In this document: piece by piece, positions 23,848 through 31,683 of the stretch
Layout of the letters: every line of letters begins with the position of its first letter
Numbering within the stretch: position 1 is the first letter of the stretch
IMG/VR virus record: IMGVR_UViG_3300036987_000161
Span: 1 to 32,779 of that record
Source: a virus
Lineage: Duplodnaviria > Caudoviricetes
DNA: 32,779 nucleotides
Reading direction: 5' to 3' (one strand)
Made by a program: the position numbers and the translations under genes
The notes under the pieces: generated by a model
What the model was told of the DNA's origin: nothing
Seen by the model: only the letters and a program-made list of their open reading frames with translations
Database searches by the model: none

Positions 23848-24963
23848 TCAGCGGCTTCGCGTCTTCGGCTCACCTGATTTCTTACGCTCTGCCTCGCGCG
23901 CCTCTTGATACTGAAGCCAATTCAGGGCGAGACTCGGGTTCACCCCGCGCGCTCTCTCCGCTTCGCGGGCGCGGGTCTCGGCCTGGATCTCACGGGCCGC
24001 TTCGGAGAGGGCACCTTGCTTGATCAATGTCCGGATGCGGTCATTTTCGAGTGCGGCTTTCTTGATGCTCGCGTTCTGCTCCAGCATCCAGTCCTCGTAC
24101 TCGGCCCAGACCCCCGCGAGTAAGCCGCAGGCGGCCTTCAGCGCGCCATCCGCTACGCCGCGGGCCTGATGGTCACCTTTGCAGCGCCCGTAGACCTTGC
24201 CGAATTCAGCGCGGCTTAGCGGCTTGTCCGCGCCCCTTGGAGGGATACCGAGCACGAAGTTGAACAGTATTGGTCGCAACGCTGGCGGGATGCGCTTCGA
24301 CCACATGGCCCATTCTCGGCCCGCATGCTGCTGCTCCGGGGTGAGCGGTAGCCTCCGAGCAGGGTCGCTAGCGCTACCGCCGTCACCATAACCGCCGATC
24401 TTCGCGTGACTGAGCCGGGAGAAGTATGCCCAGTGGAAGCTTTCCGCCGCTTCGTATTCCTGCGCACTGAGAAGGTCCGCGATCTCGTCGACGGCCCATT
24501 TGAACTGATGGGCGACGGTCGCACGCACCGGGCCCGCGGCCGGGACGACTTCGATAACGTAGGCTTCCTCGGTGGCATGCCGGCGCCGCTCCGGCGTCGG
24601 GTCGCTTGACCACACCGGCGGACGATGAAGAACCAGGTCGAGGGCTCGCTTCTGCGCGGCCGCGCGCCGAGGGGCATTTTGCAGCGAACGGATGGCGGCG
24701 GGCAGTCGGTCGGCGGGGATCTCTTCGCGGTCGATGCGCATTTTGAGAAGCTGCCGCCGGCGCGCGGATCGCTTTGCCGTCAGACGCAGTTGGGTAGCGT
24801 GGTCGCCGCGCGCGTCATTCACCAGCTTGACGATATCGACGCCTAGCTTTCCCAAAACTCGATAACACTTGTCGCGAAGGACGTTGGCGCTTGTCGTGCG
24901 CGATCGTTCTAGCGCGGCGACGATCTGGCTGGCGAGGTCGTTCTCGTCGAGTTCGTCCGTCAT
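23848..24963 (-). CDS. Putative late transcription regulator (DUF6456-like)
   Basis: LLSAQEYEAAESF...LRPILFNFVLG...LKAACGLLAGVW pattern; occupies the Q-like position before the packaging genes. Confidence 0.55.
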   Translation of the reverse strand: MTDELDENDLASQIVAALERSRTTSANVLRDKCYRVLGKLGVDIVKLVNDARGDHATQLRLTAKRSARRRQLLKMRIDREEIPADRLPAAIRSLQNAPRRAAAQKRALDLVLHRPPVWSSDPTPERRRHATEEAYVIEVVPAAGPVRATVAHQFKWAVDEIADLLSAQEYEAAESFHWAYFSRLSHAKIGGYGDGGSASDPARRLPLTPEQQHAGREWAMWSKRIPPALRPILFNFVLGIPPRGADKPLSRAEFGKVYGRCKGDHQARGVADGALKAACGLLAGVWAEYEDWMLEQNASIKKAALENDRIRTLIKQGALSEAAREIQAETRAREAERARGVNPSLALNWLQYQEAREAERKKSGEPKTRSR

Positions 24964-26323: not shown

Positions 26324-26536
26324 ATGGACAAAGCTCTTAGACGCGAGGCGATCATCGCACTTATTCGAGTGCTGCGAGCCGACGGCGAGGCGATTGCCAA
26401 GTCGGCGGCGGAAGCGGAACTGCTCTTCGACGATGGCAACCAGACCGGTGCAATCGGCGAATTGCTGATCATCGAGTCGCAAGTCGAACGCGTGCGCAAC
26501 TACCGAACCATCCTGTCGCTGCACCGCGACGCATAA
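26324..26536 (+). CDS. Hypothetical helical protein
   Basis: 70 aa; preceded by the start-associated motif. Confidence 0.6.
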   Translation: MDKALRREAIIALIRVLRADGEAIAKSAAEAELLFDDGNQTGAIGELLIIESQVERVRNYRTILSLHRDA

Positions 26537-26597
26537 GACGGCCAGAGGGCGCGCGAACGCTCCTCGGCTGGGATCAACAAACCCTGCGAGAGAAACA

Positions 26598-26873
26598 ATG
26601 AACCCGAGACTGACTGACCAAATCCTCCTGCTCGAAGTTATGCGCCTTCGCGAAACGGCGCGTGAGTACGCCGAAGACGCCGAGCATTCCGAGAAGCAAG
26701 CCGATGCCATCGCGCGGTCGCGCAATGGGTTCCCCGGTAACCTGCTAGCCGCCTCGCGTTACCGCCAGCAGGCTACCGCTAGCCGCCAGTGTGCGGCCCT
26801 CTACGCCGGCCTTGCCGACGAGATCGAAGACAAGATCGGTGCCCAGTGGTCGCCGGCAGCTTGCATTGCGTGA
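26598..26873 (+). CDS. Hypothetical helical protein
   Basis: 91 aa; preceded by the start-associated motif. Confidence 0.6.
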   Translation: MNPRLTDQILLLEVMRLRETAREYAEDAEHSEKQADAIARSRNGFPGNLLAASRYRQQATASRQCAALYAGLADEIEDKIGAQWSPAACIA

Positions 26874-26957
26874 CTTGAAACGAAGCGGCCCCGGAAGGGC
26901 GCGAACCCTTCCGAGGCCTGAGTGATCATCCAACCCTGCGAGAGAAGGAATATTCAC

Positions 26958-28340
26958 GTGACGATCCATAACACACCTTTGCCGCTGCGAATAGCCACTG
27001 CGGCGGCGTTCACTACCGGCGCCCTGGCCATCGTTCTGCAGGACATTTTGGACCTGCGCAGCATCCCGACGATGCTGGCCAATTGGACGCTGGTGCACAC
27101 TCTAGCCGTGCTCGCCGTCGTCGGTGTCACATTGACCGCCGAACTCGGATGGGACGCTCGCAAGTCGCAGCGTTACACCGTGGCGCGGGGGTTCATGATG
27201 GTGACGGTCGTCGGGCTCGGCCTCATCGTTTACAACAGCGTTGGTCGGCAGGCCGAGAACGCCAACGCGAAGCACGTCAGCGCTTCGGCGCACAACAAGT
27301 CCGTCGACGACGCAGCTGCGCGCTTGTCAAAGGCAGAGGCCGCGATGTCTGCGGCTGCGTCGGGAACGGCTGCACAACTTGTCGCCGCTAATGCCCGTGT
27401 CGCCTCAGCGGTAAAGGCCAAGGCAGACGCCGTCGCCGGCGCCATTGCCAATGCCTCGGCAAAGAACTGCGCGACCAAGTGCGCCGACTTGTTGAAGAAA
27501 GCGCAGGACGACGCAGAGCACGAACTGACGTTGGCTCGCGAAGCCGTAGCCAGCGGCGTCGCTGTTGCTGTGCGGGAAGCAAGGCAGGAACTGGCGGGCG
27601 CTAGAAACGCCGTCAACGATCTGGGCCCAGCCGTCGAGATCGCTACGGTTTCTGCGAAGGCGAAGCAGTGGGGCGAGACGCTCACGCTCATCGGCATTTC
27701 GCCGGCGACGACCGAGCGGTTCGCAAGCCGTCTAGAGTACATCTTCTGGACCCTGTTCTTCGAAATCGGCTCCATGGTTTCCTGGTGCTTTGTGCGTCAA
27801 CGTCCGCAGGAAACCATCGCAGCTACGGCAACCGTCGACGTCAAGGCAGCGGCGGTTGCTTTGCTCCAGAAGGCGGTTGCTTGGCTGCTCGGCGCCGAAA
27901 CGGCCCAGAAGGCAACCGAGGCAACCTCGGCAACCGTCGACGCCGAGTTGGCTCGGTTGAACAACCTGCGCGTCGCGTTCTTCGCTCCGGACAACGATCC
28001 TGACCCGCAGCCGACGCCGCCGGGCAACCGTCGACGCAAGCAACCGAAGTCGGAAACCAAGGCAACCGTGGCCAATCGCCAGTCGGCAACCGTGATCCCC
28101 CTGCATGCGGGCAACCGTGCGCAGAAGGTTTCCGAAGCCGAAGCCCTCAAGTGGCTGCGCGACTACACCGCCTCCAACGGTTGCCTGGACGAGCAGGACG
28201 CCATGGCCGAGGACCTGGACGTCAACAAGGGCTCGGTTTCCAAGTGGCTGGACAAGTGGGAGACCGAGGAGCTGATCGAACGTCAGCAAGTCGGACGCCG
28301 CAAGATCGTCCGGATGCTTCCCGCCAAGGCCTCCGCCTGA
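26958..28340 (+). CDS. Polytopic membrane protein: 3 TM + coiled coil with CxxxC + TM + linker + C-terminal winged HTH
   Basis: GTG at 26958 after AAGGA; three N-terminal hydrophobic segments; NCATKC in Ala-rich coiled coil; TM YIFWTLFFEIGSMVSWCFV; C-terminal QDAMAEDLDVNKGSVSKWLDKWETEELIER...GRRK HTH. Confidence 0.8.
   Translation: MTIHNTPLPLRIATAAAFTTGALAIVLQDILDLRSIPTMLANWTLVHTLAVLAVVGVTLTAELGWDARKSQRYTVARGFMMVTVVGLGLIVYNSVGRQAENANAKHVSASAHNKSVDDAAARLSKAEAAMSAAASGTAAQLVAANARVASAVKAKADAVAGAIANASAKNCATKCADLLKKAQDDAEHELTLAREAVASGVAVAVREARQELAGARNAVNDLGPAVEIATVSAKAKQWGETLTLIGISPATTERFASRLEYIFWTLFFEIGSMVSWCFVRQRPQETIAATATVDVKAAAVALLQKAVAWLLGAETAQKATEATSATVDAELARLNNLRVAFFAPDNDPDPQPTPPGNRRRKQPKSETKATVANRQSATVIPLHAGNRAQKVSEAEALKWLRDYTASNGCLDEQDAMAEDLDVNKGSVSKWLDKWETEELIERQQVGRRKIVRMLPAKASA
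27776..28241. repeat. Intragenic array of about 17 RG(C/A)AACC heptamers, both orientations
   Basis: Forward at 27809, 27827, 27911, 27920, 27929, 28023, 28039, 28052, 28061, 28085, 28110; reverse at 27776, 27854, 27875, 28127, 28179, 28235. Confidence 0.88.
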
Positions 28341-28368
28341 ACCGCCGAGGATCTCGGCATTAACACCG

Positions 28369-28402
28369 ACCCCGGCGCCGCCCAGCGCCGGGGTTTTTCT
28401 TT
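28369..28402 (+). terminator. Intrinsic terminator ending the plus-strand operon
   Basis: ACCCCGGCGC-6nt-GCGCCGGGGT-TTTTCTTT. Confidence 0.8.
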
Positions 28403-28428
28403 GGGCGCTGGACGCCTACATTAGCGCC

Positions 28429-29043
28429 GTGCCGCGTAGCCCGTTCATACCGCCGTCAGCGCCCGTTCTCCGTTCCGAGCCGCCGATCGGCCCGGAATGG
28501 CTGCACGAGGTGAAGCACGACGGCTGGCGTGCCCAGATACACCGGCACGGCGAGAAATCTGCGATCTACGGCAAGAACGGCGGTGACCTGACCGCACGAT
28601 TTCCGACGATCATCGCAGCCGTGGCGCGGCTCCCCATCCAGAGCGTCATCATCGACGCCGAACTCGTCGCCTGCACCGCCGACGGCAGGCCGAACTTTTA
28701 CGCCATGATGAGGCGGTCGCCACATGGCTGCTGCGTCTACTGCTTTGATCTGCTCGAGCTGGACGGCCAATCTCTGATGCCGCTGCCACTGGACATGCGG
28801 CGGCGGATGCTGGGCCGACTTTTGCGCCGCGCCGACAATGACGCTCTGCGGTTGTCCGAGACGTTTGACGATCCACTAGCCCTGCTAGCCGCCTGCGAGC
28901 AGCACGGGCTTGAGGGCATCGTTTCTAAGCGGCGCCAGGACGCCTATCGCTCAGGGCGAAACCGCGGCTGGATCAAGGTTAAAACGGCGGCTTGGAAAGT
29001 GGCGAACCGCGAGCGCTATAAGTTGTTCCAGACGACCCGCTAG
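28429..29043 (+). CDS. ATP-dependent DNA ligase, LigD-type adenylation domain only
   Basis: Motif I HEVKHDGWR, III IDAELV, IIIa CFDLLELDG, IV EGIVSKR, V WIKVK; ends about 20 aa later with no OB domain. Confidence 0.9.
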   Translation: MPRSPFIPPSAPVLRSEPPIGPEWLHEVKHDGWRAQIHRHGEKSAIYGKNGGDLTARFPTIIAAVARLPIQSVIIDAELVACTADGRPNFYAMMRRSPHGCCVYCFDLLELDGQSLMPLPLDMRRRMLGRLLRRADNDALRLSETFDDPLALLAACEQHGLEGIVSKRRQDAYRSGRNRGWIKVKTAAWKVANRERYKLFQTTR

Positions 29044-29516: not shown

Positions 29517-29588
29517 ACCTAGCATCCAATCGCGCTAGCGTCTGTCGATGCTAGCAGTCGCCAATGCTAGCAACGTAGCGTGATATCA
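29517..29588. promoter_or_regulatory. Putative centromere/operator: five 8-bp palindromic units at exact 16-bp period
   Basis: ACCTAGCA 29517, CGCTAGCG 29533, TGCTAGCA 29549, TGCTAGCA 29565, TGATATCA 29581; ends 1 nt before the parA ATG. Confidence 0.8.
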
Positions 29589-29589
29589 G

Positions 29590-30276
29590 ATGCGCGTCAT
29601 ATCTGTCGTCTCCAGCAAGGGAGGCGTCGGCAAGACGACGATCTCCAGTGCGCTGGCCGTCCGTGCGGCTCAAGAAAGCCGCCGCGTCGCGATCGTCGAC
29701 CTTGATCCCATGGGATCGCTCGCCGCCTGGTGGAAACGCCGCGGCGGCAGCCAGAACCCCTGCATCTTCACTGGCGCGGACACGGCATCGGACGCTGTCG
29801 AAGCCCTTGAGCTAGACGGGTGGGACTGGGTCTTCATCGACACGCCGCCCGCCTTTCTCAACACGATCTCCGACGCGATCGATAATGCCGACCTCGCGGT
29901 CATCCCGTTGCGGGCGAGCGCCCTGGACCTCATTGCCAGCGAAGACGCGGTGCTCATGGCGCGTGACATAGCCAAGCGTCAGCGCGCCGAGGGCATGCAG
30001 CCTGTCGGGCACCTGTGCGTCCTCAATGATGCGGAACCTCGTTGGAAGACGACTGACACCGCACGCGAGTACCTCCTCAAGGGCGGCGTCCCCGTCGCGG
30101 AAACAGTGATCGCGCACCGGCAAGCCTACCTCGCCGCGATGACGTCCGGAAAGACAGGCCCGGAAGTTGATCGCGTTCGGGACGGCGACGAATCCCCGTC
30201 GGCACGAGAGATCAATCGGCTGTTCGCCGAGGTGAAGGCGCTCACCAAAAAACCGAGGAAAAGGGGTCGGCTATGA
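29590..30276 (+). CDS. parA: ParA (ParF-like, type Ib) partition ATPase
   Basis: Deviant Walker A SKGGVGKTT, A' IVDLDPMGS, Walker B VFIDTPP; no N-terminal HTH. Confidence 0.92.
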   Translation: MRVISVVSSKGGVGKTTISSALAVRAAQESRRVAIVDLDPMGSLAAWWKRRGGSQNPCIFTGADTASDAVEALELDGWDWVFIDTPPAFLNTISDAIDNADLAVIPLRASALDLIASEDAVLMARDIAKRQRAEGMQPVGHLCVLNDAEPRWKTTDTAREYLLKGGVPVAETVIAHRQAYLAAMTSGKTGPEVDRVRDGDESPSAREINRLFAEVKALTKKPRKRGRL

Positions 30277-30572
30277 AGGAATCCGACGATGGCGACGACG
30301 GGAGCGCGTTCTCCAACCTGCTAGGCGCGTTCGGAAGCCATGCGGATCCGGAGAAGCGCGCGCGGTCTGAGCGGTTCGCCGCCATGAAGGCACGTGACAA
30401 ACGCCGACGGCCGGGACCTGCGAGAACCGAGCAGTATAATGCCCGGATCACAGAGGCGAAGCTTGCGCTGGCCCACCGCATTACGGTCCAAACCGGATTG
30501 GGCAATGGCGATATCGTCGAGCAAGGCATCGATCTGGTTGCTGCAAAGCACGGAGTGCCACTCGATGCCTGA
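30273..30572 (+). CDS. ParG-like centromere-binding protein (flexible N-tail + RHH)
   Basis: ATGA overlap with parA; Arg-rich tail, then TEQYNARI strand and two helices (GDIVEQGIDLV). Confidence 0.7.
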   Translation: MKESDDGDDGSAFSNLLGAFGSHADPEKRARSERFAAMKARDKRRRPGPARTEQYNARITEAKLALAHRITVQTGLGNGDIVEQGIDLVAAKHGVPLDA

Positions 30573-31683
30573 CAAACTTCTGCGATGCCTCGTCGGCGTC
30601 GCCGGCGTGGCTGTCGTCGCGGCGGCGACTTATGCGAACGTGATGCATGCCGGCGGCGTGGACGCCAAAGAGACGCCGCTCATCATCGCGTTGGCCGCAT
30701 TGCTGATCATCGGCATGGCGTTCGCCATGGTCTCATGGATCGAAAAGCGCAAGGCGCAGGCATTGGTGCTGGGGCTTTGCCTTCTCTGCGGGGAAGCGTA
30801 TTGGGCGTTGGTCAACCTCGATCGCGAGGTGACCGATCGCGACGTCCGCGCCTACCCGATTATCGAGGCCCGCAAAACCCGCAACGAAGCCGTGCGCAGA
30901 GTCACCGAGGCAGAGGCAAAGGTGGCTGCCGTACCTACTACGTCAAGCCGGCTCAACACGGCGCTCGGCGCAAAGGCGGCGGTCGACGCGACGGTACTAA
31001 CCAAGAGCGCCGACTTGAACTGTCGCGTGAATTGCAAAGAGCTGCTGCAGGGACAGGTGAGAGACGCCCAGCGCGAGGTGGACGCTGCCCGTTCCGAACT
31101 CGAGGCTGAGAAGCAATCCGCCGAGCAAGCGATGAAGGCCGCGAAAGCGGCGCTGGAGAAGCTTCCAGACCCGCCGTCGGCCACCGCGCTTCCGGACCGT
31201 CTCGGCATCGCGCCGTGGCTCTGGGACCTCATTCTGGCGGGACTGCGCACCGCCGGGATCGTCGGCGGATCTCTTGCGCTGGGTTTCGCCATCCATCCGC
31301 GGCGCCAGAAAACCGAAACGTCTAAGCTGGCGGCACAAGAGGTCGCCGCGGCGCGGAACGAGCGAGCCCAGCGGCTGGAGGTGAGGCCGGTGCCGGCGAT
31401 AACGCACCAGATGGACGCGCGCGAGCGGCGCGAGCACGTCTCGCTTTTCCTCCACGAGACGATCCGGCCGGATGTGAACGGTAGCTTGTCGCTCGAAGCC
31501 CTGGCCGCGCGCTATTCGACCTGGTGCAAGTCAGGTGCGCTGCCATCGGAAACGCTCGGTGAGGAGCTGCGGGCGATATTCCATGCGTTGGACCTCCGGC
31601 TCGAGCCGCAGGGCCGTGACGTTGTGGTTCATGGCGCCAGCATCGCGCAGGCAATTGCCGGACCGAAGTCGTCAGCAGCCTGA
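30565..31683 (+). CDS. Polytopic membrane protein: 3 TM + coiled coil with CxxxC + TM + C-terminal D5/P4-alpha/RFX-like winged helix
   Basis: ATG at 30565 overlaps the parG-like stop; NCRVNC in coiled coil; C-terminal VSLFLHETI...LSLEALAARYSTWC...LGEELR...VVVHG. Confidence 0.75.
   Translation: MPDKLLRCLVGVAGVAVVAAATYANVMHAGGVDAKETPLIIALAALLIIGMAFAMVSWIEKRKAQALVLGLCLLCGEAYWALVNLDREVTDRDVRAYPIIEARKTRNEAVRRVTEAEAKVAAVPTTSSRLNTALGAKAAVDATVLTKSADLNCRVNCKELLQGQVRDAQREVDAARSELEAEKQSAEQAMKAAKAALEKLPDPPSATALPDRLGIAPWLWDLILAGLRTAGIVGGSLALGFAIHPRRQKTETSKLAAQEVAAARNERAQRLEVRPVPAITHQMDARERREHVSLFLHETIRPDVNGSLSLEALAARYSTWCKSGALPSETLGEELRAIFHALDLRLEPQGRDVVVHGASIAQAIAGPKSSAA

Follow-up and report, generated by a model that had tools for sequence, protein, structure and literature searches.

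The product of a phage gene for a predicted inner-membrane protein very likely binds an array of short DNA words that lies within its own coding sequence. This assignment rests on the co-variation of the word with the recognition helix of the protein, with base contacts of the expected kind, a relationship that is hard to explain otherwise. From the sequence comparisons we also lean, by a modest degree, toward the view that these sites serve to clamp the phage locus to the membrane for the positioning or inheritance of its DNA. The array itself is real and selected. Systems with self-encoded sites are known, whereas a helix-matched array in the gene of a membrane protein is new as far as the literature found is concerned; a search covering little of the subscription literature gave no account of this family or of any such combination.

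The window analyzed here is the whole virus contig, which is linear, 32.8 kb long and about 47% complete. Its minus strand carries portal, protease, capsid, tape-measure and tail genes, while small genes, the array gene, a DNA ligase gene, parA, an RHH-like gene and a second membrane gene occupy the plus strand. The phage host likely belongs to the Hyphomicrobiales/Hyphomicrobium group because the capsid and second-membrane-gene matches fall there: the top capsid match in named genomes was to a Hyphomicrobiales bin (55%, best of 14 loci), and two of the three matches of the second membrane gene were to Hyphomicrobium bins. A 371-aa ORF on the minus strand (23848–24963) had no Pfam or PHROG match. 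In many loci the family gene is preceded by an ORF that likewise has no annotation and is comparable in length and strand.

Site array in the 3′ part of the gene

The array gene and its features are listed below.

26958–28340, plus strand: array gene, encoding a 460-aa predicted inner-membrane protein; the GTG start agrees with homologues and the ORF is open from 26922
26982–27230, plus strand: predicted TM1–TM3 (residues about 9–27, 49–67 and 73–91), from family-mean hydropathy, Lys/Arg bias and model helices
27231–27740, plus strand: long helical hairpin, predicted to be periplasmic, with C171-x3-C175 at the turn; free of array copies except that at 27647
27647–28241, both strands: RGMAACC array of 18 sites, with 11 on the forward and 7 on the reverse strand; most are half-sites of GCAAC-S-GTTGC
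27741–27797, plus strand: predicted TM4 (residues about 262–280), a clear family-mean peak
28062–28072, no strand assigned: near-full palindrome GCAACCGTGGC, one mismatch
28134–28316, plus strand: winged helix-turn-helix (residues 393–453), modeled with pLDDT above 90; Pfam MarR E 7e-4
28174–28184, no strand assigned: near-full palindrome CCAACGGTTGC, one mismatch, within the winged-helix coding region
28227–28247, plus strand: predicted recognition helix K424-G-S-V-S-K429-W430, in which K429 tracks the outer base of the site
28368–28395, plus strand: terminator-like hairpin with a T run, directly 3′ of the array gene (consensus match only)

Seventeen RGMAACC sites fall within 466 bp (27776–28241), with the eighteenth at 27647. 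The forward copies of the 17-site array comprise eight GGCAACC, two GGAAACC and one AGCAACC, and the reverse copies three GGTTTCC, one GGTTGCC and two GGTTGCT. All 17 positions and strands were as first claimed in a reading of the sequence alone (hereafter the sequence-only reading), and its 14-mer at 27827, 27929 and 28023, translated as ATVD, ATVD and GNRR, was equally correct, as were a copy read as KQP and the 9-bp spacing. The array begins just 5′ of the TM4 codons and continues through the linker and the winged-helix coding region. No copy of GMAACC occurs in 26469–27640, which covers the promoter region and the 5′ half of the gene. Spacing is irregular, sites occur on two strands, and a test for 10.5-bp helical phasing found none.

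RGMAACC has 33 matches in the 32.8-kb contig, of which the 15 beyond the array are at chance level (13.85 expected over the full contig from dinucleotide shuffles). Among 200 genomes simulated with an order-3 Markov model, no 466-bp stretch had more than 4 sites (mean of the best clusters 2.3), against 17 in the window. No other 6-mer in the contig is as strongly clustered as GCAACC. When the protein was held fixed and the codons were redrawn, 2.0 copies of GCAACC were expected against 12 seen, with none of 1000 draws as high; selection on DNA rather than protein, as had been proposed, is borne out by this codon-preserving null. The accompanying statement that all frames and both strands are used stands for three frames and two strands, but the use is skewed, with 13 of the 17 copies in one frame and 3 and 1 in the other two. 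Some copies probably arose by duplication, hence not all are independent, because those at 27827 and 27929 lie 34 codons apart and span an insertion that the closest relatives lack.

The unit is better described as a half-site of the palindrome GCAAC-S-GTTGC than as RGMAACC. Only two sites in the contig, at 28062 and 28174, come within one mismatch of this palindrome, and both are in the array. The counterpart of the 28174 palindrome is perfect in one relative (L138). Two others (L134 and L135) have a perfect palindrome at about the same position in a different frame, read as A-T-V-A versus N-G-C in the window.

The predicted protein

The protein is predicted to consist of three TM helices, a coiled coil with a CxxxC motif, a fourth TM helix, a disordered linker and a winged helix. 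Family-mean hydropathy gave four peaks, at residues 9, 49, 73 and 262, with Lys and Arg richer on the predicted inner side; in the window protein by itself, TM4 falls below the 1.5 hydropathy cut. The prediction is thus of an anchor of four membrane helices and a winged helix on the cytoplasmic side, in keeping with the earlier description of a membrane-anchored HTH protein. The structure model has a mean pLDDT of 72 and a pTM of 0.39, which makes the packing between domains unreliable.

Database comparisons placed little besides the winged helix. The Pfam MarR match covered the winged-helix part only and scored 19.9 bits against a curated cut-off of 24.6; with the full domain unmatched, assignment as a MarR-type regulator was rejected. 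Foldseek searches of PDB and BFVD matched the winged helix only, with no hit at E≤0.001. PHROGs and PADLOC gave one weak match each, on the C-terminal part. No match was obtained in NCBIfam, in PDB by sequence, or among annotated phages and annotated plasmids (one homologue as query in each), and the atlas returned hypothetical-protein clusters only.

Arrays in related genes

Single-protein locus searches returned no relatives, and alignments were needed to find them. Two protein searches yielded 23 family proteins, and locus searches yielded the loci L125–L192. Much of the comparison concerns the W subfamily, defined by a winged helix whose recognition helix ends in Trp; it includes the window and comprises 35 genes with distinct tails.

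An array within each homologous gene had been named as a check on the original claim. Using one NNNAC half-site (AC core assumed) in the last 480 bp, 27 of the 35 W genes had strong arrays in their 3′ part at −log10p 4, compared with none of 28 5′-half controls and one of 68 window tiles, this one being the array itself. The main counts are given at 4; at a loose threshold of 2.5, 4 of the 28 5′ controls and 20 of the 68 tiles also pass. The array is weak or missing in the remaining 8 of the 35, among them L165, L228, L248 and L251. An unconstrained 6-mer search was positive for 31/34 W genes, 25/42 EASK/GAAxR genes and 5/27 genes with small or other HTH domains, against 11/88 controls. The array is therefore typical of the W subfamily and common in EASK/GAAxR genes, while the small-HTH forms are at control level. 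At the looser cut, all 30 genes beat the synonymous-codon null (p≤0.01), using 3–6 strand/frame registers. Enrichment was limited to the last ~600 bp of family genes.

Pooling the 3′ regions by recognition helix gave enrichment of GCAACC, CCGAAC/CGAACC, GAAATC, GGAAAC and CGGCAA/GCAACT. The full site is palindromic in class A (GCAAC-S-GTTGC) and class B (CGAAC-G-GTTCG) and occurs in several frames; none of the palindromes guessed for the other three classes (C, D and E) agreed with the sequences. Among later-fetched loci, all five genes with KGT[VA]SKW helices had GCAAC arrays, four of them with perfect 13-bp palindromes, a KSTLSNW gene had a CGAAC array, and new helices came with the new palindromes CGGAC, GGAAC and GGGAC.

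The perfect 13-mer is rare, with 1–4 copies in each of five host genomes. Both copies of GGCAACSGTTGCC in G174 (5.4 Mb) are inside the family gene, as is the only copy in G279. One of four copies in G104 lies in the family gene, and the single copies in G001 and G002 lie elsewhere.

Separately, in five loci (L165, L166, L167, L191 and L202) the helix is KGCVSKW and the array is missing, so that the position-3 Thr/Ser and the sites have been lost together in nature.

Correspondence between site word and recognition helix

Lys/Arg reads G and Asp/Glu reads C in the usual pattern of protein–base contacts. At −log10p 4, all 16 W genes with Lys or Arg at helix position 6 had an outer G, all 11 with Asp, Glu or Asn there had an outer C, and all 11 with Gly at position 2 had CA. 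The motif thus co-varies with the recognition helix, in the manner that the sequence-only reading had asked for, and the gene's own product is the likely binder. Across the family, at least five site words were matched to 14 helix sequences. The independent support is a handful of switch events rather than 27 genes, because trees with the six helix residues masked (30 genes, looser cut) need only three G/C label changes on the whole protein and four on the winged helix.

The correspondence is not an artifact of the helix coding for the word: the word derived from linker DNA alone was unchanged in 28 of 30 genes, and it was located in the helix codons in 6 of 35. Leave-one-out prediction of the class from linker DNA, trained exclusively on genes with unlike linkers, was right in 15 of 22 cases (class A 5/6, D 9/9, C 1/7), classes B and E having no such training genes. 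Words from three unlike-linker training genes gave 17 matches in the window linker versus 0.68 expected. When the six helix classes and a leftover group were mapped on a tree built from the membrane part (43 rows, after exclusion of six that were redundant or broken), 13 changes were required, which shows that helix and anchor have been shuffled.

A rule stated beforehand was applied to 29 further regions containing nine W-type genes. The top word was G-initial in seven of eight Lys/Arg genes; four of these seven are near-identical (one of the four weak), and the eighth, a fragment, failed. The single Glu gene among the nine had no array, so the pre-stated test covered the G side only. Against a strict helix–word rule, KGEASKR helices occur with GAAAC in some genes and with GCAAC in L137.

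As a side observation, the Thr-Val codons of the helix (window 28227–28247 and relatives) spell AC-N-GT, the core of the palindrome.

Proposed function

In the mechanism considered here, the winged helix, predicted to face the cytoplasm, would recognize GCAAC-S-GTTGC and half-sites of this palindrome in its own gene, presumably as a dimer or oligomer given the palindromic site. The locus would be held at the membrane as a physical consequence, because a membrane-fixed protein would be binding many sites in its own gene; the phage DNA would in effect be clamped to the inner membrane through the four-helix anchor. The protein might prefer the gene copy that made it, since transcription and insertion are coupled and each gene copy brings its own sites. 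Such a clamp could help to position the DNA of a prophage or of a replicating phage, or to secure its inheritance, in a Hyphomicrobiaceae host. Gene and sites would then form one portable cassette with drifting specificity, which may keep co-resident prophages from sharing tethers. Against a role in partition, an integrated prophage needs none, yet many family copies are in large, chromosome-size contigs.

Hyphomicrobium buds from a hypha. We put forward, tentatively and as less probable than not, a more specific version in which the gene is a single-gene DNA–membrane clamp with a centromere in its own coding sequence and a helix-to-base code; the clamp would convey phage DNA, or keep hold of it, during its passage along the hypha to the bud. 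The words would then act as incompatibility groups, and the system would be a Gram-negative counterpart of Spd-driven spreading in the mycelium of Streptomyces. Hyphomonas, which belongs to another family, transports its origin through the stalk as the second of two steps (PMC6650430). No description of phage DNA positioning in bacteria that divide via a thin hypha was found, and the family offers a candidate protein and a predicted site for it. It also provides a natural panel for single-residue predictions, with at least five words set against 14 helices, and an example of a gene that evolves under two codes at once, one in the DNA and one in the protein.

Several known systems share parts of this design. 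pSK1 Par, KfrA, RacA and Noc are motor-free and join a DNA-binding head to either a coiled-coil stalk or a link to the membrane, and the present protein resembles them in these respects. Their sites are in promoters or spread over the chromosome and the proteins are not polytopic, whereas here a polytopic protein is predicted and the sites occupy the 3′ coding region. As a further point against a role in partition, neither ParA nor an FtsK/TraB motor was named among 140 neighbor ORFs of 31 family loci (short loci, best five families each), and no TraB/FtsK translocase was named among the 32 ORFs of the 47% complete window.

SpdA2 of the Streptomyces plasmid pIJ101 binds the palindrome sps inside its own coding region, and its loss lowers segregational stability (PMC4170104). 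The likeness lies in a palindromic site within the coding region of the mobile-element gene that encodes the binder, a predicted one here. SpdA proteins have 117–163 aa and bind DNA with their N-terminal part, and sps, a single conserved 12-mer, occurs in 1–3 copies (PMC4170104). In contrast, the family studied here has 300–460 aa, is predicted to be membrane-bound with a C-terminal winged helix, and has about 8–18 half-sites with a word that varies with the helix. Membership of SpdA was rejected, since size (460 aa in the window), domain order and site word all differ.

SpdB2 of the Streptomyces venezuelae plasmid pSVH1 has four predicted TM helices, a coiled coil and DNA-binding activity, and putative homologues on some actinophages have been proposed to help in the spread of phage DNA (PMC4447253). 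Four TM helices and a coiled coil are likewise predicted here, from hydropathy peaks and the model hairpin. The coiled coil of SpdB2 is N-terminal, its DNA binding is non-specific and its partner is the TraB pump (PMC4447253). Here the coiled coil is placed between TM3 and TM4, specific binding is predicted, and TraB/FtsK was not named among the neighbors. Pfam DUF2637 was absent from the 22 families matched by 23 members at E≤0.05. With 40 members and a limit of E≤1, it did not appear in the top 25 of the 76 families matched, so that Pfam gave no support for membership of SpdB2/DUF2637.

Alternative explanations

Self-binding could have a regulatory purpose. The array might be a transcription roadblock that limits expression of its own gene or of the opposing late transcript, as stoperators do, with the membrane part sensing an envelope signal. 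Mycobacteriophage stoperators, spread over the genome, are a precedent for such roadblock sites. A NusG-like antiterminator gene directly downstream on the opposite strand faces the array in 10 of 31 family loci, and several of the 31 have a terminase or methylase gene on the upstream side. Transcripts of late genes therefore probably run across the array; palindromic sites would also suit a repressor. Nevertheless, sites are missing from the promoter region and the 5′ half of the gene and are not distributed genome-wide as stoperators are, and ten to twenty sites with a long membrane stalk would exceed what a roadblock needs. We consider this role rather unlikely.

The protein might instead be a superinfection trap or sensor, made by a lysogen, that catches the DNA of phages with the same word at the inner membrane and blocks entry or opens a pore, the words defining exclusion groups. 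The gene opposes the late operon and has its own terminator-like hairpin, like many accessory genes expressed in lysogeny; specificity diversifies quickly; and SpdB2, of similar build, forms pores (PMC4447253). The resident copy has the same sites, however, and would be expected to occupy the protein, and a comparison of six proteins with PADLOC gave nothing beyond a match to a winged-helix stretch at E 0.006. A trap is accordingly improbable.

An origin- or loading-type site, one of the functions suggested by the sequence-only reading, fared worse. Lambda O has a winged helix, with iterons in the linker of its own gene. A winged helix with repeats in its own linker is shared by the present gene, lambda O and O-like initiators, some of which have a near-identical word: O-like initiators of other phages have GGCAACC or GCAACSGTTGC repeats in their linkers, and one matched the family profile weakly. 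The present gene differs in lacking an AT-rich unwinding region, with no AT-rich stretch found in 27400–28600 (13 G+C in the lowest 30-bp window), and in having a membrane stalk in place of a helicase-loading domain. In addition, the spacing is irregular and two-stranded, and replisome-organizer, DnaB or primase genes lie near the family gene in three relatives (L174, L185 and L133), which thus encode separate replication functions. Membership among O-type origins was rejected on the AT content, the spacing and the lack of an initiator family match, and a lambda O-style origin with intragenic iterons is highly unlikely.

The sites could also be read by another binder, either a host protein or the nearby ParA/RHH module, since parA and an RHH-like gene lie 1.3–2 kb downstream of the array gene. 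The module has the following parts.

29519–31683, plus strand: separate module, no part of the array, with GCTAGC-type repeats, parA, RHH-like gene and membrane protein
29590–30276, plus strand: parA
30273–30572, plus strand: RHH-like gene
30565–31683, plus strand: distantly similar membrane protein, no array

The three genes occur in this order in all five loci compared (window, L232, L386, L387 and L388), each time with GCTAGC-type repeats upstream of parA. The trio may be a partition system that includes a membrane anchor of its own; its membrane protein has a CxxxC hairpin and a different C-terminal domain. The build of the anchor is linked to partition, as indirect support for the proposed role of the array gene, in that this sister membrane gene follows parA and the RHH-like gene in five of five loci. 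A type Ib centromere (ParA plus RHH) was rejected as an identity for the array, because the module has repeats of its own and arrays occur without ParA nearby, none being found within 1.8 kb of the family gene in 31 loci. Two further genes that carry the word without this winged helix (in G104 and L315) would fit another binder, but the rarity of the perfect 13-mer in five host genomes argues against a host protein, and a change of word with this particular helix would be left unexplained. We rate such a binder as very doubtful.

That the array is a by-product of a low-complexity Ala-Thr-Val linker and local duplications, as the one-frame excess, the likely duplication of some copies and the predominance of protein repeats in word-only scans might suggest, is hardly credible given that the synonymous null was rejected in 30 of 30 genes, that copies occupy as many as six registers on the two strands, that perfect palindromes recur in different frames and that the word tracks the helix.

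Distribution

A 40-row profile found the family gene in 55 of 301 genomes of Hyphomicrobiaceae, the family of Hyphomicrobium sp. LHD-15, and in 6 of 401 genomes of the order, 3 of them shared with the family sample. Among 401 genomes of the class, it was found in the center genome only, with no match in the other 400. Because the profile derives from these same phages, only 5–7 candidates per genome received a score and many of the genomes have gaps, a miss means not found rather than absent. A few matches were in bins labeled other than Hyphomicrobiaceae (L136, L186 and L190). The narrow host range fits a role of the proposed clamp in passage through the hypha; kinship alone would also produce it.

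A cultured carrier of the family gene is Hyphomicrobium sp. LHD-15 (L134 in genome G001). In addition to its GCAAC gene, it has two more genes (L198 and L199) with RSTVSDW helices and CGGAC arrays; different words therefore coexist in one genome.

Other carriers of the word

Scans of viral contigs that started from the word mostly returned protein repeats. In the first, no homologue was recognized in the 40 densest of 124 loci, which held mainly protein repeats and O-like initiators; the second found one family gene among 120 loci. These scans neither support nor refute the clamp. Mixed-strand RGMAACC clusters with no obvious long ORF across them were seen in four other viral contigs (L065, L109, L044 and L037).

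Two small genes, at L262:5352–5897 (genome G104) and L315:1197–1661, have a hydrophobic N-terminus, a different C-terminal domain, and GCAAC-S-GTTGC with half-sites in the linker. That in G104 is unrelated to the family gene, lies 6 kb from it and carries the same word; with a single query, it was found in 1 of 30 genomes. Because both genes carry the word, either binding is not confined to the protein's own gene or another domain reads the word. They may represent a trans target or a second self-binding family.

O-like replication initiators of other phages (L281, L268, L326, L293, L342, L026, L069 and L123) have GCAAC-core repeats in their linkers. The N-terminal winged helix of one of them, in a comparison of 8 sequences with the winged-helix profile of the family, matched weakly at E 6e-5, and a common origin of helix plus sites in the two groups is possible.
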